Below, one piece after another: positions 16,001 through 41,103 of a DNA stretch of 64,000 bases. Both the position numbers and the translations under genes were made by a program. This stretch comes from Waddliaceae bacterium (lineage in GTDB: Bacteria; Chlamydiota; Chlamydiia; Chlamydiales; Waddliaceae). The stretch lies in NCBI GenBank assembly GCA_963724325.1, contig CAVRUH010000005.1:1-64000 (forward strand). Reading direction: 5' to 3'. The notes beneath the pieces are model-generated. The model saw nothing but the letters and a program-made list of their open reading frames with translations. It ran no database searches and was not told where the DNA came from. Every line of letters starts with the position of its first letter. Within the stretch, counting starts at the first letter, position 1.

Positions 16001-16146
16001 TGAACTGTGGCCTGCTGTCGGAGACAGCAGACCACAGTGGTCCGCTCTCTCCGAGAGCGGACGCCTGCTGTCGGAGACAGCAGACCACAGTGTCCGCTCT
16101 CTCCGAGAGCGGTCGCCGGCTGTCGGAGACAGCAGGCCACAGTTCA
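16001..16146. repeat. REP/BIME-like cluster, family 1 (three A and two B hairpins), bounded by 19-bp inverted repeats
   Basis: tgaactgtggcctgctgtc ... gacagcaggccacagttca; same hairpins as 32039-34041 in reverse orientation. Confidence 0.9.
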
Positions 16147-30001: not shown

Positions 30002-31309
30002 ATGTTCTGTTCCAGACCTGCCTATTTTACTCACTTTTATAATCTTAGTAGATTGAAATTAGAAAAGGGATTGACCAAAAAGGAACTCAGTTGCTTAGAC
30101 ATCAATAACGTATCCAGAACTCACGAAGAAGAATTGGCAAAGTTGATTTTAACATCAAAAGTCAGAATGAGTTCTGTAGAATTTTTCAGAGCTTGTAATG
30201 TTGTTGTATCAAACCATAGTGGTTCGGATAAAATGGTTCAACGCGTAAATTTAATATCTCATCTTATCCGCGTTCCAGATATCACCGACGAGATTTGTCA
30301 GGATCAAGAGGTTAAAGATGTTCTGAAGCGAGTAATCGAAGGAGGGAATTACCACCTATTCAATCCAGTAAACAAGCGAGAATTAAAAGAAAAATTAATA
30401 AAAGAACTAGGTAAAAAAGATGCCTCCTTGCTGACTAAAAAGGTTAATGCTTATTTTAAGGATGGATTTTATGGACTCGAAAACTTAGGATTAGCACGCG
30501 AAATCAAATGGCGCGAAAGAAAGGAGCGATTTCTAGAAAAAAAATTGAGTGCAGTCTGTCCATTCTATTTTCTAAAACTCTATCGCGAAGACTTAGCCTT
30601 TATGGAAAATCAAGTCTTTGCAAAGTATGTTCGCGAAACTTTTAACTTGTTAGCGAAACACAATTCATTAGGACTATTATTCCAAACAACCGAAGAGATT
30701 TATCCAGGACAAATGTGTGAAGTGCACCCGCTCTTAAGGAATATCAGAACCCGTTTTGAGAATAAAACCTATAGAACTTTTGAGAGTATTGTTCCCTATC
30801 TTAAGGCCTTAGCAAACCGGAATTTAGGGACACTTAAAGAATATTATTATAAATCAAAAATCGACGGCCTTCAACAAGGAATCGTATTTTATGATAATGA
30901 AATCAAACGCAATGAAATTGAGTCTATGAAGGGTAAAGAAATAGCCAGCATGGTGTCCCATGACATAAGACATGGAGATTTTAAATTTGTGAATGATAAT
31001 AATAGACGCAATATTCTCCGGAAAGCATATGAAACTATGGAGAAGTTTAAAGCTTGGAAAATGTTTAACGAAGGTTTTCGTAATGGCAAAGATTATTTGA
31101 CTTGTGTAGATCCCATATATAAAATTGTGACAGATGAACTCGACGAAAGAGGTCTGACTAGTAGTGAAATTGGGTATGTTATGTGGAGAATGAGGGACGT
31201 TCATGAAAATGGCTGGAATAAGTTTGTCCTGAAGTTTATTGAAAGTGAACACAACAAGCAAGGTGTTGTTTCCCAAATGCAAATTCAATACAAGCGCCTT
31301 TTGGGATGA
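30002..31309 (+). CDS. Hypothetical protein (possible effector)
   Basis: 435-aa ORF with GGAGG RBS; no recognised full-length family. Confidence 0.75.
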   Translation: MFCSRPAYFTHFYNLSRLKLEKGLTKKELSCLDINNVSRTHEEELAKLILTSKVRMSSVEFFRACNVVVSNHSGSDKMVQRVNLISHLIRVPDITDEICQDQEVKDVLKRVIEGGNYHLFNPVNKRELKEKLIKELGKKDASLLTKKVNAYFKDGFYGLENLGLAREIKWRERKERFLEKKLSAVCPFYFLKLYREDLAFMENQVFAKYVRETFNLLAKHNSLGLLFQTTEEIYPGQMCEVHPLLRNIRTRFENKTYRTFESIVPYLKALANRNLGTLKEYYYKSKIDGLQQGIVFYDNEIKRNEIESMKGKEIASMVSHDIRHGDFKFVNDNNRRNILRKAYETMEKFKAWKMFNEGFRNGKDYLTCVDPIYKIVTDELDERGLTSSEIGYVMWRMRDVHENGWNKFVLKFIESEHNKQGVVSQMQIQYKRLLG

Positions 31310-31312
31310 GAT

Positions 31313-31366
31313 GTGGTCGGCTGTCTCCGACAGCAGACTTCCGGCTTTCTTTGAGAGCCGGACCAC
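31313..31366. repeat. Single diverged REP doublet, family 1, between convergent genes
   Basis: gtggtcggctgtctccgacagcagacttccggctttctttgagagccggaccac. Confidence 0.85.
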
Positions 31367-31957: not shown

Positions 31958-32308
31958 GGTAATAATGGTATCAGTTTTGCAATTTTGGATTCAAGTGCTC
32001 TAATAAAGAACACTTTGCGGCCTGCTGTCTCTGACATTGTGGCCTGCTGTCTCCGACAGCAGACGTCCGGCTCTCGGAGAGAGCCGGCCACAAGTGGCCT
32101 GCTGTCTCCGACAGCAGACGTCCGGCTCTCGGAGAGAGCCGGCCCAAGTGGCCTGCTGTCTCCGACAGCAGACGTCCGGCTCTCGGAGAGAGCCGGCCAC
32201 AAGTGGCCTGCTGTCTCCGACAGCAGACGTCCGGCTCTCGGAGAGAGCCGGCCACAAGTGGTCTGCTGTCTCCGACAGCAGACGTCCGGCTCTCGGAGAG
32301 AGCCGGCC

Positions 32309-33794
32309 CTCAAGTTTGGCGGTTTCTCATATTTTTGAGAAAAAACTTTCAAAAAAAAGAGAAGACACATAATATTTTTGTTTTTCACGCAAATGAGGAC
32401 AAAAAAATATGTGCCTTCTCGAAACTTTTCTATCACTAGTCTCCCTATGGAGACCAGCATTTTGTAAACAAGACACCTTTAGAAGAGTCAAAGATCACGC
32501 TGTCGCGACTGTTTGCTCCTTGGGACGCCATACGATCACAAATCTTATCATTTGGCTTGGAAAAGATCAATTAGATCCTACAGCCGATTATAGATTATAC
32601 AATGAATATAAGTGGAATGTCGAGGATCTTTTTAACCCTTTATTGGAAAAGGCAATGCCGTTTTTTGGAGATGATTATGTTGTTGTTGGAGCCGACGACA
32701 CTCGTATTCGCAAAAGAGGAAAGAAGATCCCTGGAACATCTTGGGGAAGGGATCCATTATCACCCCCATTTCAAGTTAATTTAATGTGGGGGCAAAGATT
32801 TCTTCAATTTTCATTTCTACTTCCTATGTACAATCATTCATCAGTCAGTGCACGAGCATTGCCTATAAGATTTATTCATACTCCTCCTTTAACAAAACCT
32901 GGTAAAAGAGCAAATGCAGCAGAAATATTAACATACAAGAAATTATGTAAGACTCAAAATTTATCGACTCGGTATATAGAAGAGGTAAGAAAATTGAGGG
33001 AGCATTTAGATGCAATAGGGTGTACAAAAAAACAACTTATGGTCACTGACGGTAGTTTCTGTAATAGAATTTGCATGAATTTAAACATGCCAGGAGTTGA
33101 AGCACTAGCACGCGCCAGAAAGAATTCAAAACTATGTTATCGGGCTGAAGGCAATGGTAGACGCACATATGGGGTTAATAAATTCACTCCAGAGCAAGTA
33201 CGTCAAGATGATAGTATACCATGGCAGTCTGCAATTTTCTTTTATGGTGGTGAATGGAGAAGAATAAGATTTAAAGTATTGCGAGATGTATTATGGCAAT
33301 CTGGCACAAAGACTAGACCGATGAGATTATTAGTCGTAGCACCGTTGCCTTATGTGAAAAATGGGATTAGAAATTACCGCCAACCCGCCTATCTATTAAC
33401 AACTGATCTCGAGGCCACAGCAGAATTCCTTCTTCAGAGTTATTTAGACAGATGGCAGATAGAAGTAAACTTCAGAGAGGAAAAATCTGTATTGGGTGTT
33501 GGAGAGGCCCAAGTATGGAGTGAAAAGTCAGCTGAAAGACAGCCATCATTTAGGGTTGCAGTATATAGTGCCTTATTATTGTCTAGCATTCTGAAATACA
33601 AGGATGTGCCACCAATTGATGAAGAGATTCCGAAATGGAGAGACAAGCCACAAAGAAATACCTGTAGAGCATTAATAGGGATGATTAGAAGTGAAACTCT
33701 AGAAAATATAGAAAGTATAATAGATTTAGAATTAACTAGGCCGATGTTATCGGCAATTTTTCGAAAAGCAGCCTAAAAAACCGCCAAACTTGAG
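32309..33794 (+). mobile_element. Insertion sequence, 1486 bp, IS4/IS701-like DDE
   Basis: Perfect 17-bp TIRs CTCAAGTTTGGCGGTTT / AAACCGCCAAACTTGAG; flanking 25-bp direct repeats 32284-32308 and 33795-33819. Confidence 0.93.
32409..33776 (+). CDS. DDE transposase
   Basis: GADDT, VTDGSF, YLDRWQIEVNFREEK (Y-2-R-3-E-6-K motif); intact 455 aa. Confidence 0.92.
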   Translation: MCLLETFLSLVSLWRPAFCKQDTFRRVKDHAVATVCSLGRHTITNLIIWLGKDQLDPTADYRLYNEYKWNVEDLFNPLLEKAMPFFGDDYVVVGADDTRIRKRGKKIPGTSWGRDPLSPPFQVNLMWGQRFLQFSFLLPMYNHSSVSARALPIRFIHTPPLTKPGKRANAAEILTYKKLCKTQNLSTRYIEEVRKLREHLDAIGCTKKQLMVTDGSFCNRICMNLNMPGVEALARARKNSKLCYRAEGNGRRTYGVNKFTPEQVRQDDSIPWQSAIFFYGGEWRRIRFKVLRDVLWQSGTKTRPMRLLVVAPLPYVKNGIRNYRQPAYLLTTDLEATAEFLLQSYLDRWQIEVNFREEKSVLGVGEAQVWSEKSAERQPSFRVAVYSALLLSSILKYKDVPPIDEEIPKWRDKPQRNTCRALIGMIRSETLENIESIIDLELTRPMLSAIFRKAA

Positions 33795-34128
33795 GTCCGG
33801 CTCTCGGAGAGAGCCGGCCACAAGTGGTCTGCTGTCTCCGACAGCAGACGTCCGGCTCTCGGAGAGAGCCGGCCACAAGTGGTCTGCTGTCTCCGACAGC
33901 AGACGTCCGGCTCTCGGAGAGAGCCGGCCACAAGGCCTGCTGTCTCCGACAGCAGACGTCCGGCTCTCGGAGAGAGCCGGCCACAAGTGGCCTGCTGTCT
34001 CCGACAGCAGACGTCCGGCTCTCGGAGAGAGCCGGCCACAAGTGGACAGCAACCACAAATTATTTGATTGACCAATTCGATTTATTATTTTATTGTGGGA
34101 CCTATAAAAAAATGGAATCTGGTGGTAC

Positions 34129-34218
34129 ATGCAGACTGAATTTCAAATAGCTGGAGCTGGGGTTGTATTAACTTTGATCTATCTTGTCTATGCACTTCTA
34201 TACCCGGAAAAATTTTAA
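34129..34218 (+). CDS. kdpF: K+-transporting ATPase subunit F (29 aa, absent from ORF track)
   Basis: MQTEFQIAGAGVVLTLIYLVYALLYPEKF*, ending 1 nt before the kdpA ATG. Confidence 0.9.
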   Translation: MQTEFQIAGAGVVLTLIYLVYALLYPEKF

Positions 34219-34219
34219 T

Positions 34220-35863
34220 ATGTCGATTATAGAACTCGTAATTTTTTTTGCTGTACTTATCTCCCTGACACCCCTAATGGGGATCTATATGGCAAAGGTA
34301 TTTACTGGCGAATATGTCGTGCTAAGTCGATTTGAAAACCTATGCTATACCATTGCAGGTGTAGATCCAGAACAAGAAATGACTTGGACTTCCTATGCCA
34401 AATCCCTTTTGTGGTTCAATTTGTGCGGGTTTTCTGCTGTATTTTTCATTCAACTTTGTCAATATTATCTCCCATTAAATCCACAGCAATTACAAGCTCC
34501 TTCCCTGGACCTTGCATTCAATACAGCCATAAGCTTTGTTACAAATACCAACTGGCAGGCATACTCCGGAGAAAATACACTGAGTTATTTCACCCAAATG
34601 GTCGGACTCACCGTACAGAACTTTCTAAGCGCTGTCACAGGCTTAGCTGTTTCCTTGGTGCTTGTTCGTGGATTTGCAAGAAAAACTTCGTTAACAATCG
34701 GAAATTTTTGGGTAGATATCGTTCGTTCAACATTTTATATTTTTCTCCCTCTTTCCATCATAGTTTCTTTAGTTCTTGTGTGCAATGGAGTCGTGCAAAC
34801 TTTTGCTCCTTATGCTGAAGTGACAACGTTAGAAAATACGAAGCAACAGATTCCTCTGGGTCCAGTGGCTTCGCAGATAGCAATAAAACAACTGGGAACA
34901 AATGGTGGAGGTTATTTTGGAGCAAACAGCGCTCACCCCTTTGAGAATCCTAATCTTATCACTAATTTTATTGAAATGCTTGCCATTTTATTGATCCCTG
35001 CAGGGCTTGTCTATTCGTATGGGATCATGATCGATAATAAAAAACATGGGGTGCTGCTTCTGCTCATTATGTTCAGCATGTTAGCATTTGGATTGGCTGT
35101 TGGACTACCTGCAGAAATGGGAAATTTAGAAGGAAAGGAAACTCGATTTGGTATAGTCAACGATATGCTTTGGACGCTTTCGACAACTGCAACTGCTAAC
35201 GGATCTGTCAATGCTATGATCGATAGCATGTCTCCTTTAAGCGGGGGTATTGCTATGTTCAATATTATGCTTGGAGAATTGATTTTCGGCGGAGTTGGTG
35301 TTGGTTTGTGCAGCATGTTATTATTTATTCTTCTAACAGTGTTCCTTTCGGGATTGATGGTAGGAAGGACCCCAGAATATTTAGGAAAAAAAATCAGAAG
35401 AAAAGAAATCCAATGGGTTACAGTAGCAATATTGGCCCCGGGAGCTCTTATTCTTGTCGGTTCAAGCCTCTCATGTGTATCGCACGATGGCCTATCCAGC
35501 CTAGGAAATAAGGGGCCGCATGGTCTTTCTGAGATACTTTATGCCTTTACTTCATGTGCAGGAAATAATGGAAGCGCCTTTGGTGGGCTGAATGTTAATA
35601 CTCCATTCTATAACATATCTTTAGGCTTTGTCATGCTATTGGGAAGAGTAGCGATTGTCATTCCTAGCTTAGCTCTTGGTGGACTGTTTGCAGCAAAGAA
35701 AATATCTCCTCCTTCGGCTGGAACGTTTTCGACAGACACATTGTTGTTTGCGATCCTTCTCTTAGGAGTAATTGTTATTGTCGGCGGCTTGACCTTTTTT
35801 CCTGCTTTGGCACTTGGTCCTATTGTTGAGCATTTGCTTATGCTTCGAGGAGTTGAGTTTTAA
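34220..35863 (+). CDS. kdpA: K+-transporting ATPase subunit A
   Basis: [43 protein letters not shown]. Confidence 0.97.
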
Positions 35864-37938
35864 TGAAAAATAACATTTCCCAATTTTTTGATTCTAAATT
35901 AATTTTTGGATCCATACAAACTTCATTCTTCATGCTCAATCCCCGTATTCAGTTCAAAAACCCAGTGATGTTTGTTACCTATATCGGAGCTATTGCGTGC
36001 AGTATTCATCTCTTTATAGATTATTTTTCATCTTTCAACCTTCAAATCACTTTGTGGCTATGGTTTACGGTACTTTTTGCAAATTTTGCACAAGCTATTG
36101 CAGAGAGTCGAGGAAAGGCGCATGCGGCTAGCTTGAAAAAGTCTAAAATTGAAGCCTATGCAAGACAACTTGTCGATGGTACTGAAGTAAAGGTCCCTTC
36201 TTTTGAATTAAAGCGAGATGACATGATCGTTTGTGAGGCCGGAGATATCATTCCAGCCGATGGCGAGGTAATCGAGGGAATAGCCACGGTGGATGAGTCA
36301 GCAATTACAGGGGAGTCAGCTCCAGTGATTCGTGAAAGCGGCGGCGACCGCAGCGCTGTTACGGCCGGGACAAAAATTTTAAGCGATCGTATTGTTGTTA
36401 GAGTGGTCTCAGAACCCGGAAATAGTTTTCTCGATCGAATGATCAACCTTATCGAGGGTGCTAAGCGGCAAAAAACACCAAATGAAATTGCATTACATAT
36501 CTTATTGGCCGGCCTAACCATTATTTTTCTCATTACAACAGCATCACTCAAATTATATGCAGATTATAGTGCCCTTGCAGCTAAAGAAGACCTGAGCGGG
36601 ATCATCACCCTTCCCATTTTGGTATCACTTTTGGTTTGTTTGATTCCAACGACAATAAGTGCACTTTTAAGCTCTGTGGGAATTGCTGGAATGGATCGAC
36701 TCGTTCGACGCAATGTTATTGCCAAAAGCGGTCGATCAGTGGAAGCTGCTGGAGATATCGATCTCCTCATCTTAGACAAAACCGGTACAATCACTATCGG
36801 AAACAGGCTGGCCTCAGAATTCTTACCTGTGAATGGGGTTTCAGATAGAGAATTTGCGATTGTAGCACAATTAGCTTCTTTATCTGACGAAACTCCAGAA
36901 GGTCGCTCAATAGTCGTACTAGCAAAGAACAAATATGACTTACGTGCGGAATCCCTAAATATTTCCAATACCAAGTTCATCCCATTTTCAGCAAAAACGC
37001 GTCTAAGCGGACTTGACTTCTTGGATTCGACTGGAAACATTATTAGAAGCGTCCGTAAAGGAGCCCCTGACTCAATCAAGAATTTTGTGAAAAATTATCA
37101 AACTCATATCCCAACGCACCTTGATGATTCCATTAGAACCATCGCCAATACAGGCGGCACCCCTCTGCTAGTTTGCGATGATAAAAGAATTCTTGGTATC
37201 ATACACTTAAAAGATGTGATCAAAGGAGGCCTCAAAGAACGTTTTACTGAACTGCGTCGGATGGGAATTCGCACCCTTATGGTTACCGGAGATAATCCTC
37301 TTACAGCTGCGGCTATTGCCGCTGAAGCTGGCGTCGATGACTATATAGCTGAAGCTACCCCTGAAATTAAATTGGACCGCATTCGTAAAGAACAAGAAGA
37401 TGGTCGACTTATCGCCATGACAGGCGATGGCACTAATGATGCACCAGCCCTTGCACAAGCCGATGTTGGTGTTGCCATGAATACCGGAACCCAAGCTTCG
37501 CGCGAAGCAGGAAATATGGTCGATCTTGATAGTAATCCAACAAAACTCATTGATATTGTGGCAATAGGGAAACAGCTCCTGATGACCCGTGGAGCTCTCA
37601 CAACATTCAGCATCGCCAATGATGTTGCGAAATATTTTACTATTATCCCAGCCATTTTTAGTCAGCTATACATACAAAATAATGAAGGTCCACTGGCAAT
37701 TCTTAATCTGATGAAACTCCATTCTCCTCAAAGTGCCATTCTCAGCGCTGTCATTTTCAATGCTCTCATCATTGTCGCACTTATTCCTTTGGCATTGCGC
37801 GGAGTTAAGTATCACGCCGAGTCAAGCTATTATCTTTTGCGCCGAAATATTCTGATCTATGGCTTAGGTGGTATTCTATTGCCATTTGTAGCAATTAAAT
37901 TCATTGATCTTATCATTACCTTTCTAGGTGTAGCATGA
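35863..37938 (+). CDS. kdpB: K+-transporting ATPase subunit B
   Basis: [29 protein letters not shown]. Confidence 0.98.
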
Positions 37939-38456
37939 GGAAAGAAATGTTTGCAGCTTTGAGATTATTTTTGTGGATGACTTTTATCCTAGGTGGTGCC
38001 TACCCTTTGTTGATCACAGGTATCGCACAAATTACCATGAATCATAAAGCGAATGGATCACTTATAGGAACAGTGGGGTCCAACCTGATCGGTCAAAAAT
38101 TTGAAAACGATAAATACTTTTGGGGACGCCCATCAGCTTCCGATTATAATGCCGTACCATCAGGTGCCAGCAATTTAGGACCTACCAGTAAGGCTCTTAA
38201 AGAGGCTGTAGAGAAACGTAAAGCCAAAGTTGGAGCAAATGCCCCACCTGAACTTCTTTATGCTTCTGGAAGCGGTTTAGACCCTCACATATCACCAGAA
38301 ACAGCCATATATCAAATTGATCGCATCATTAAGGCACGAGGCCTAAATGAAACCACTGATAGAGCTATCCTCGAAGAATTAATTCGAGAAAATACACATT
38401 TTCGTACCGTTAATGTTTTGCAATTAAATCTAAGTCTAGGAGTTAGCCGTGAATGA
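37935..38456 (+). CDS. kdpC: K+-transporting ATPase subunit C
   Basis: [34 protein letters not shown]. Confidence 0.97.
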
Positions 38457-41103
38457 AGATAATCAAACTGATGCAGATGCTCTTCTTAAGGCAGTCAAGC
38501 AACAGGAAAGTACACTTAAAAAAGCAAAGCTAAAGATTTTTTTTGCTATGGCAGCTGGCAGTGGAAAAACCTATGCAATGCTCCAAGGCGCCCAGGTACT
38601 CAAAAAAAATGGCATTGATGTCATTGTAGGCCTAGTCAATACCCACGGCCGTTCCGAAACGGCAGCGCTGCTTAATGGATTAAAAGTTATCCCAGAAAAA
38701 CCTGTAGAGTATAAGGGCATTGTTTTGACCGAATTTGATATTGACGAAGTCCTGAGGCTAAAACCACAAGTCGTTCTAGTTGATGAGCTCGCTCATACAA
38801 ACGTTCCTGGTTCGCGTCACCCCAAAAGGTGGCAAGATGTAAAAGAACTCCTAGAAAACGGTATCGATGTCCACACGACGCTCAACGTCCAACATGTGGA
38901 AAGCCTAAAAGATATCGTCGAAGGAATCGCCGGCATCACTATTCGCGAAACCGTTCCGGATTCCATCATCGAAGAAGCAGCATCTATTGAATTAATAGAT
39001 ATTACAACAGATGAACTTTTACAAAGACTCAAAGAAGGAAAAGTTTATCTGGGAGATAAATCGGAAGTCGCCGCAAAGAATTTCTTCCAAGAAGATCGCC
39101 TCACCGCCCTGCGTGAAATTGCTCTTAGGTATGCAGCAGAAAAGGTTGATCACGAACTACAAGGTATGGTTACATCAGTGGGCCGTCTAGGGGAATGGAA
39201 GCCTCGCGAGCGACTATTGATTGCTGTAAGCCAAAGTCCCTATTCACAGAAGCTCATTCGCATGACACGTCGACTTGCCTCGAATCTTCACTCTCCGTGG
39301 ATTGCCGCATATATTGACGATGGATCCACCCTCAGCATTGAAGATAATAATTTGCTCACTAAAAATCTTGCCCTAGCTAGAGACCTTGGCGCCGAAATTA
39401 TTGTCACAAATGATTCAGATATTGCTGACGGAATAAAAAGAATTGCTAAACAGCGGGGAGTAACACAAATTATTTTGGGAAGACCACCCAGAAAAAGGTT
39501 CCTAGGACTGTTTGATAGTGAATCTATTGTCGATCGCTTGTCACGCGAATGCATAGACATCGATATACATGTGATTAGACAGGAAATGCAGCTTACTAGG
39601 CACCACAAAAAATTAATAGCATTGCCAAAAGAAAAATCATATTCATCATACATTATTGCGATAATCACCGTTGCCATCCTGGGAGGATTAAACTGGTTCC
39701 TACTTTCGATGATCGGTTACAAAGTAATAGGTGTTATATTCCTTGTTGGCATACTTGGACTCAGTTTATTTCTCAGAAAAGGCCCCATTTTTCTTGCGAC
39801 ATTCCTTTCCGGATTCATTTGGGACTTCTTCTTTGTGCCTCCAACAGGATCTCTAGAAATCGATTCAACAGAAGATGCAGCTCTTCTCATTGTATATCTC
39901 CTCACAGCTATTTCAACAGGCATTTTAGTTGACAGAGCCAGACAAAAGAAAGATATTTTAGAAAAAAGGGAAAAGAATGCACAGGCCCTTTATGATATAA
40001 TTAGAAATATTGCTAATACCCGTAGAAACGATACCTCCTTTGACAAAGTAAAGGAGAAATTGGGTCAAATCTTTGCAGGCACTTTCGACATTGTAGTTAA
40101 AACCTACGATGGCGGCCTTCCTATAGATAAGTCAGGTACTCTCCTATCCGATGAAAAAGAGAAAAATGCTTGCATTTGGGTATTTGAGCACGGCAAAGAG
40201 GCTGGATGGTCAACTGACACTCTTCCACTCTCACAAAATTTGTATATTCCAATGGTGGGACTTCAGGATACAGTAGGGGTTCTTATTTTCAGACCAAAAT
40301 TAGACAAAGTTCTTTCACTCGACGATATGAATTTTCTATTCACAGTGACTCAACAACTTGCTAAGTTCTTTGAAAGACGTCTTTCTGATGACAAAATTAA
40401 AAGAATGGAAGAAAATAAACAGATGGAAAGCATGCACACGATGATTTTAAATCGAATATTGCATGTCCTCCAACATCCCATATCAGTTTTTGAAACTTCC
40501 ATTGTAAATATTAAAATTTTATTGAAACCAACATCAGAACCTGCTTTGATAACTGAAATAAATAAAATAGAAAAAGCTAAGGAAAATTTAAAGATAATTC
40601 TTACTAATGTTTCGGAAATGGCCAATTTGAGCGGCGGATTTGTTTCTCTTGACATCAGCCTGCACAACATTAAGGAAGTTGTGAATATATGTTGCAAAAA
40701 TGTAAAAGATATAGCATTCGATCATATATTGACAATAAAAGTTGAAGATAATTTACCTCTCGTACCACTAGACGTTTCTCTCATCGAAGTGCTCTTGTTC
40801 AACTTAATGACCAACGCAATTTATTACTCACCCAAAAAATCGACTGTTCTTATCGAAGCTAAAAAATGGGATAAATATGTTCTTATTTCAGTTGCAGATG
40901 AAGGGAAAGGGATCCCTGAAGATCAAATTGATGCTATTTTTGAGAAATTTTACTCAATTGCTGATGAAGCAACCCGGAACATCGGCTTGGGGCTAGCCAT
41001 CGCAAAAGCTGTCGCAGAACTACACCACGGCCGCATCACCGCCGAAAACCGCCCTATCAAAGGTGCAATCTTCTCAGTATTCCTTCCCTTCAATAACGAA
41101 TAA
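38449..41103 (+). CDS. kdpD: Sensor kinase KdpD with atypical H-box
   Basis: GKTYAML, LVDELAHTN, KRWQDV, RETVPD, Usp, 4-TM, GAF and HATPase domains. Confidence 0.93.
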   Translation: MNEDNQTDADALLKAVKQQESTLKKAKLKIFFAMAAGSGKTYAMLQGAQVLKKNGIDVIVGLVNTHGRSETAALLNGLKVIPEKPVEYKGIVLTEFDIDEVLRLKPQVVLVDELAHTNVPGSRHPKRWQDVKELLENGIDVHTTLNVQHVESLKDIVEGIAGITIRETVPDSIIEEAASIELIDITTDELLQRLKEGKVYLGDKSEVAAKNFFQEDRLTALREIALRYAAEKVDHELQGMVTSVGRLGEWKPRERLLIAVSQSPYSQKLIRMTRRLASNLHSPWIAAYIDDGSTLSIEDNNLLTKNLALARDLGAEIIVTNDSDIADGIKRIAKQRGVTQIILGRPPRKRFLGLFDSESIVDRLSRECIDIDIHVIRQEMQLTRHHKKLIALPKEKSYSSYIIAIITVAILGGLNWFLLSMIGYKVIGVIFLVGILGLSLFLRKGPIFLATFLSGFIWDFFFVPPTGSLEIDSTEDAALLIVYLLTAISTGILVDRARQKKDILEKREKNAQALYDIIRNIANTRRNDTSFDKVKEKLGQIFAGTFDIVVKTYDGGLPIDKSGTLLSDEKEKNACIWVFEHGKEAGWSTDTLPLSQNLYIPMVGLQDTVGVLIFRPKLDKVLSLDDMNFLFTVTQQLAKFFERRLSDDKIKRMEENKQMESMHTMILNRILHVLQHPISVFETSIVNIKILLKPTSEPALITEINKIEKAKENLKIILTNVSEMANLSGGFVSLDISLHNIKEVVNICCKNVKDIAFDHILTIKVEDNLPLVPLDVSLIEVLLFNLMTNAIYYSPKKSTVLIEAKKWDKYVLISVADEGKGIPEDQIDAIFEKFYSIADEATRNIGLGLAIAKAVAELHHGRITAENRPIKGAIFSVFLPFNNE

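Follow-up and report, generated by a model that had tools for sequence, protein, structure and literature searches.

An insertion sequence (IS) in the genome of a Waddliaceae bacterium is bracketed by two copies of a 25-bp direct repeat (DR), each of them one whole hairpin of a REP array, raising the question of whether the target hairpin itself dictates where the element inserts and how much of the target is duplicated. The element lies within the 64,000-nt stretch of DNA analyzed here (hereafter the window), and its features are listed in Table 1. The first-pass annotation of this DNA had described a DDE element whose DR is exactly one REP hairpin, and had stated that removing the element with one repeat restores a perfect 55-bp unit. 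Both descriptions are accurate: the repeat surrounds a 1486-bp element, and in silico excision of the IS plus one 25-bp DR yields nine contiguous 53–55-bp units, the interrupted one being a perfect 55-mer. The window repeats fit the REP definition (short tagged intergenic palindromes in dimers and clusters), and the array units match the layout of GTAG-type REP dimers, with family naming after PMC3733652 as given in the excerpted text of that paper.

Table 1. Features of the insertion sequence and the surrounding REP array (window coordinates).
Feature	Position	Strand	Description
REP array, left part	32039..32308		five 54–55-bp units; unit is an inverted pair of GTGG-tagged hairpins
Left DR, 25 bp	32284..32308		one whole hairpin; 9-bp perfect stem, 3-nt loop, +2 nt each side
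Insertion sequence, 1486 bp	32309..33794	+	
Left TIR, 17 bp	32309..32325	+	perfect
DDE transposase, 455 aa	32409..33776	+	intact; D96/D97, D214, E352; Y345-R348-E352-K359; Tn5-like predicted fold
Right TIR, 17 bp	33778..33794	-	perfect
Right DR, 25 bp	33795..33819		same sequence as left DR
REP array, right part	33820..34039		four further units, 53–55 bp

Two placements of the element ends had been offered earlier, 17-bp TIRs with a 25-bp DR or 18-bp TIRs with a 23-bp DR. Other copies of the element carry G/C or T/A beside its ends, which rules out the latter and bears out the former. The hairpin is not part of the element, since identical IS copies bear different hairpins, and insertion at the hairpin loop is ruled out by the presence of a full hairpin in both flanks. 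The DR ends had further been equated with the base of the stem; the window DR is indeed centered on the hairpin, but it runs 2 nt past the 9-bp perfect stem on each side, across a T·C mismatch to an outer G:C pair that marks where the neighboring hairpin ends. Contigs from two public runs, X1 and X2, both possibly including the source sample, have breaks at positions 32309 and 33794, in line with 17-bp TIRs and a 25-bp DR. No joint corresponding to an empty allele or a circle junction was found at the locus in contigs of four public runs, and the locus was not found at the DNA level in 20 related genomes, short pieces excepted.

The REP array is preceded by a Maf-family gene (Pfam) and followed by a gene that we take, from its translation, to be kdpA, the first of a presumable kdpA-B-C-D operon read from translations at 34184–41103. 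This kdp-type operon is divergent from maf, and the IS and REP array occupy the upstream region common to both. Further copies of the same REP family, without an IS, lie at 16012–16140 and 31313–31346, and a 435-aa ORF at 30002–31309 (+) has no Pfam match and only weak NCBIfam matches.

The source genome contains eight full copies of the IS, at most one substitution apart and one of them with a frameshifting 1-bp insertion; the expansion to eight copies is recent. The first-pass annotation had proposed checking whether other copies are likewise flanked by duplicated hairpins with DRs of hairpin length, and hairpin-centered DRs of 22–27 bp are present at all eight, seven of them exact (25, 23, 23, 23, 27, 22, and 22 bp) and one of 23 bp with a single mismatch. 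These DRs fall in two unrelated REP families, the 22-bp ones belonging to the second, which has a 4-nt loop. Of a ninth event, 29 bp of the left end survive (G000:C1:879427–879455), enclosed by a 22-bp hairpin DR. The rest of that copy was apparently deleted via a 3-base microhomology at the right junction, and a run X1 contig continues from the same flank into 401 IS bases, which could be a full-length allele or an artefact of the graph. With 566 perfect hairpins (stem ≥ 8 bp) in the 2.37-Mb genome, the chance of a random insertion landing ≤ 3 nt from a hairpin foot is ∼0.17%, against the eight of eight copies observed. The nine events occupy six separate arrays, with three copies in one array and two in another; each insertion leaves two hairpins, so that the same array can be struck again.

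Because the window copy sits inside a 55-bp tandem array, its long DR might have arisen when an insertion with an ordinary short DR was later altered by recombination, deletion, or slippage between units. Such arrays do rearrange, as the single DR mismatch in the genome equals a variant of the neighboring unit. Exchange between 55-bp units, however, shifts a DR by multiples of 55 only, and the 27-bp DR in the three-copy array begins with two bases from the end of an older neighboring IS copy that are absent from array units, so this DR was made at insertion. Lone, non-arrayed hairpins are duplicated in the same way in relatives of the element. Array rearrangement is thus already contradicted, and we regard it as an exceedingly improbable origin of the repeats.

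The transposase has at least 4237 homologues among 7997 scored candidates. A search with a 37-protein alignment recovered loci at 42–56% identity from genomes (at least 80) and metagenomes (at least 80), and among the matches listed their titles include Parachlamydiaceae, Acidobacteriota, Verrucomicrobia, Gemmatimonadales, Syntrophobacter, and others. A genome with a locus titled Parachlamydiaceae belongs to the same order as the source genome. Element ends were called from TIRs alone, with an end pattern picked after a first look at the data, and this defined the ends of 114 of 160 homologue loci. Within 3 nt of 91 of 105 left ends and 98 of 104 right ends (189/209 together) a perfect hairpin (stem ≥ 6) begins, leaving 14 left and 6 right ends without one, compared with 102 of 10,056 shifted positions and 49 of 6270 shuffles (∼1%).

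To these homologue loci we added copies from five genomes and the eight own copies, giving 134 placements, of which 120 were unique with both flanks; many come from a few acidobacterial genomes, so that the elements are kin while the insertions are separate events. Six loci with uncalled ends (L181, L191, L201, L206, L214, and L218) were omitted; four of them have DRs of 22, 19, 21, and 22 bp, L206 has none, and one end of L218 is altered. At the distant loci L209, L211, L212, L222, L226, and L230, neither ends nor a DR could be called.

Among the 120 placements, 56 have an exact DR, 12 a near DR (≤ 2 mismatches), and 52 none. The exact DRs span 13–34 bp (median 22) and comprise 53 distinct sequences, yet their center coincides exactly with the hairpin axis in 53 of 56 cases, the other three being off-axis. 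DR length follows hairpin length (Spearman 0.85), as the first-pass annotation had anticipated when it suggested that the hairpin sets the duplication, and it does so in relatives of 39–56% identity from several phyla. Relative to the perfect stem, the DR most often extends by one nucleotide on each side (+1/+1 in 29), followed by 0/0 in 10, −1/−1 in 6, +2/+2 in 4, and −2/−2 and −4/−4 in 2 each, with 3 asymmetric cases. The DR ends are symmetric about the axis, as the joining at the hairpin base first suggested would predict, but their commonest position lies 1 nt outside the stem rather than at the foot itself.

An enzyme reading a degenerate sequence and cutting ordinary duplex with a long, flexible stagger would also produce variable DRs, with hairpins enriched since intergenic palindromes are tolerated as insertion sites. 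The clustering of DR lengths at 20–23 bp (34/56) and the G/C-rich DR termini are compatible with this account. It fails to explain why DR parity equals loop parity in 54 of 56 cases or why DR length tracks the stem over the whole size range, and the DR sequences, at 23–87% G+C, differ widely in composition. Selection, moreover, would be unable to center a DR on a hairpin axis. We consider a flexible stagger on duplex DNA very unlikely.

The same set of DRs shows that hairpins are targeted irrespective of their sequence, with REPs as the commonest supply. A GTRG or GGAG tag lies near the stem in only 23 of 56 DRs, and in a Parachlamydiaceae genome the targets include AT-rich, terminator-like hairpins. 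The specific targeting of REPs proposed in the first-pass annotation thus stands insofar as REPs are hit, but has to be widened to hairpins generally.

Short DRs at non-palindromic sites, which the same annotation had associated with recombination or deletion in the array, are nearly absent. None of the 120 placements has a DR of 4–11 bp, and a single case emerged by reconstruction: two loci of one genome (L186 and L206 in G402) have swapped flanks, and re-pairing these gives a 21-bp hairpin DR and, at a site that has no hairpin, a DR of 7 bp. The element thus sometimes inserts off target, with a short stagger, and the targeting is not absolute. Placements without a DR are concentrated outside the hand-picked long-contig assemblies (9/58 versus 43/62 in the rest, which are mostly short contigs but include six loci on 50–350-kb contigs). 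In the homologue-locus set, two different hairpins flank 34 of 50 no-DR loci, a pattern that fits collapsed assemblies or exchange between copies; the partner flank was traced at another copy in only two pairs. Exchange between copies has been described for ISRm22 in the accessible portion of PMC1525189.

We then considered which enzyme carries this behavior. The window transposase scores barely above the cut-off for DDE_5 in Pfam, and its best whole-protein NCBIfam match is NF049999 (transpos_IS701_3), at 137 bits and short of the cut-off of 170. Other IS701 models score lower (NF033540, 41 versus 150; NF049921, 17 versus 250), IS4 models reach 28–32 bits, and an IS30 model is not among the NCBIfam or Pfam matches. 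The predicted structure (pLDDT 80) is most similar to Tn5 transposase (Foldseek E 5e-9; Z 21.1, rmsd 4.3, 347 aligned). The DDE residues are separated by spacers of about 116 and 137 residues, of which the first slightly exceeds the IS4 range D(60–110)D(100–150)E. The Y-R-E-K motif is conserved in 33 of 34 aligned clade proteins, with C for Y in the remaining one, and its K is replaced by R in three aligned outgroup proteins (L010, L224, and L227).

In a FastTree phylogeny of 38 proteins, rooted on one distant protein and omitting five distant loci without a usable ORF, all hairpin-duplicating elements, including a branch at 39% identity, separate from a group at ∼25% identity, with a support of 0.97 on that branch. 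The 39%-identity branch scores 183 against NF049999, above the cut-off, and the ∼25%-identity sister group scores 273–348 bits and has its element-end signature in common with the hairpin clade. All seven sister-group loci with a DR (L224, L225, L227, L228, L229, L241, and L253) have 5–6-bp DRs at non-hairpin sites. Hairpin duplication is thus restricted to one clade, the boundary of which is drawn by the sampled loci. One IS701_3 member of the sister group, in genome G319 (L010:1399–2952, L015, and L249), is present in three copies without DR, and its flanks are inverted repeat arms, 6 and 20 bp perfect; this may reflect a sequence-specific insertion whose flanks were exchanged, or replacement of a loop.

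Most relatives (102/114) have >300 bp upstream of the transposase gene, with a small ORF. The one scanned in the main acidobacterial branch, L042:249–584, has a HARE-HTH match. Another, L186:1301–1588, has a weak MazE/AbrB-like match (E 0.027), and in the L186 branch the upstream ORF and the transposase frame overlap at a run of A residues, a possible site of frameshifting. The window element and ∼10 relatives have only ∼100 bp in this region, which rules out a requirement for an accessory gene. As the window element has no such upstream ORF, no element-encoded protein other than the transposase is needed.

A host protein could nevertheless contribute. The main rival to our reading is that a junction resolvase, a RAYT, or a REP-binding protein opens or cuts the cruciform and the transposase joins the element into the prepared site. 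Several observations in the source genome are in keeping with this. All nine events lie in REP-family hairpins, which make up 149 of the 566 genome hairpins and 136 of the 253 most stable ones, so a mild additional REP preference is possible there, judged on six sites only. A RAYT-like tyrosine transposase gene (L223:1327–1869 (−), G000:C5 ∼207300–207850), scoring 79.3 bits against NF047646 at a cut-off of 80, adjoins an array of the second, GGAG-tagged family rather than of the window's REP family, in a genome that is 85% complete. Four of the six insertion sites lie between convergent genes compared with 23 of 58 arrays of both REP families, which gives no clear orientation signal; in a rough ORF prediction from which frames passing through arrays had been excluded, none of the 58 lies inside a long ORF. 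The commonest stems across relatives are also short, at 8 bp. Against a host factor, the trait tracks the transposase clade across phyla and is absent in sisters, including those in genomes of the same order. The 33 of 56 DRs without a nearby REP tag argue in the same direction, as does the cut being symmetric about the axis when the tag is one-sided, and a single DDE strand-transfer step accounts for cutting and joining together. On balance, we judge preparation of the site by a host protein to be unlikely, though clearly less so than the two alternatives considered above.

We therefore favor, as the probable explanation, a transposase that recognizes its target by shape and joins the element ends at the 5′ feet of the hairpin, with repair copying the hairpin to both sides. 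DRs result from staggered attack by the two element ends on opposite target strands. If the positions of attack are symmetric about the axis and shift with stem length, pairing within each strand is required, which points to a cruciform or to paired hairpins in a bubble. The transposase would capture or induce a small cruciform at the target hairpin and, on each strand, join an element end at the 5′ foot, probably attacking ∼1 nt outside the stem, with both strands presumably extruded when strand transfer happens. Gap filling and repair would then copy the whole hairpin to both sides, and the YREK motif and predicted fold suggest cut-and-paste end processing as in Tn5. Stems of 8 bp would extrude poorly unaided; they may be extruded by the enzyme itself, or opened by supercoiling or host proteins. 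The first-pass annotation had already pictured an extruded cruciform joined at its base, an image that agrees with the hairpin-length, axis-centered DRs, while the cruciform and the joining chemistry are deduced from them. A stronger version, to which we give about even weight, is that this widespread, unclassified clade of Tn5-fold transposases has become one of junction-targeting integrases. Such an enzyme would, unaided, capture or induce a four-way junction and, in the act of joining the element, cut this junction diagonally in the manner of a Holliday-junction resolvase.

The closest precedent is IS1630 of Mycoplasma fermentans, an IS30-family element reportedly described by Calcutt, Lavrrar and Wise in 1999. 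One legend sentence in PMC2853133 gives its hairpin-linked DRs as 19–26 bp, and on that account its hairpin-duplicating behavior is the same as in the window clade. IS1630 has an IS30-type enzyme and is known from one species, whereas the window clade has an IS4/IS701-type enzyme with a Tn5 fold and spans several phyla; the trait has likely arisen twice. Hairpins of unrelated sequence are also the targets of IS1272 and TnSha1 (IS1182 family), for which a cruciform model was proposed in the available sections of PMC5678879 and PMC4923244. These elements delete the stem-loop and produce no DR, unlike the window element, which duplicates its hairpin; in these two elements, the earlier statement that long palindrome-linked DRs are described mainly for IS1182-type elements does not hold. 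The geometry of the window clade corresponds to pathway b in Fig. 13 of PMC5678879, hypothetical for IS1272 in the text around that figure, in which joining at the 5′ foot duplicates the whole stem-loop.

Placement among established families is less direct. The window element resembles IS701 in its single-ORF DDE transposase, TIRs, and size (1486 bp, within 1400–1550 bp). The IS701 definition in the excerpted PMC2266710, however, specifies a 4-bp DR and absence of YREK, while the window element has a full YREK, 22–27-bp DRs in its own genome, and scores below NCBIfam cut-offs. Members of NF049999 that pass the cut-off resemble the window element at their ends (CTCGACTTTG-type) and form the nearest outgroup of the window clade. 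The ISPepr1 subgroup of IS4, described in the same excerpts by the end signature YT-AA-YTT---A, a 7–8-bp DR, and a size of 1500–1600 bp, shares the full YREK and is close in size; by eye, and relative to published subgroup descriptions rather than member sequences, the window end matches 7 of 8 signature positions. At position 4, most relatives have G instead of A. The lone 7-bp DR at a non-hairpin site is in the ISPepr1 range, but the other DRs, at 13–34 bp, are of hairpin length and unlike those described for ISPepr1. By fold, Tn5/IS50 is the best match of the window transposase.

Several ISs target REPs, namely ISRm22 (IS4), ISPsy8 (IS3), and ISPpu9/ISPpu10 (IS110), according to the accessible parts of PMC1525189 and bioRxiv 10.64898/2026.03.19.712850. 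As described there, these cleave a particular REP sequence at a constant internal position, give 0–6-bp DRs, and do not duplicate a hairpin; for RNA-guided ISPpu10, the target stem-loop adds specificity in the covered text of the same preprint. We found no description of a hairpin-duplicating IS701- or IS4-type clade in the literature searched, with ISfinder and most subscription papers lying outside the search. The behavior is therefore a known one, from IS1630, found here in another enzyme family, where it obeys a sharp geometric rule and where a sister group makes short DRs.

IS classification makes use of DR length, which is regarded as fixed for a given DDE transposase; in this clade, the target sets it. 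The hairpin clade and its sister group with 5–6-bp DRs form a natural pair for identifying the residues that switch between duplex and junction targets. Two further questions come within reach of experiment: do short REP and terminator palindromes form cruciforms in living bacteria, and how does the same target structure end in duplication for the window clade and IS1630 or in deletion for IS1272? As a single 455-aa enzyme that uses intergenic hairpins as targets and leaves a hairpin intact on both sides, the transposase could provide a simple safe-harbor integration tool. If these enzymes are indeed junction-targeting integrases, elements could be directed to any designed hairpin, and each natural insertion would record a cruciform formed in vivo.
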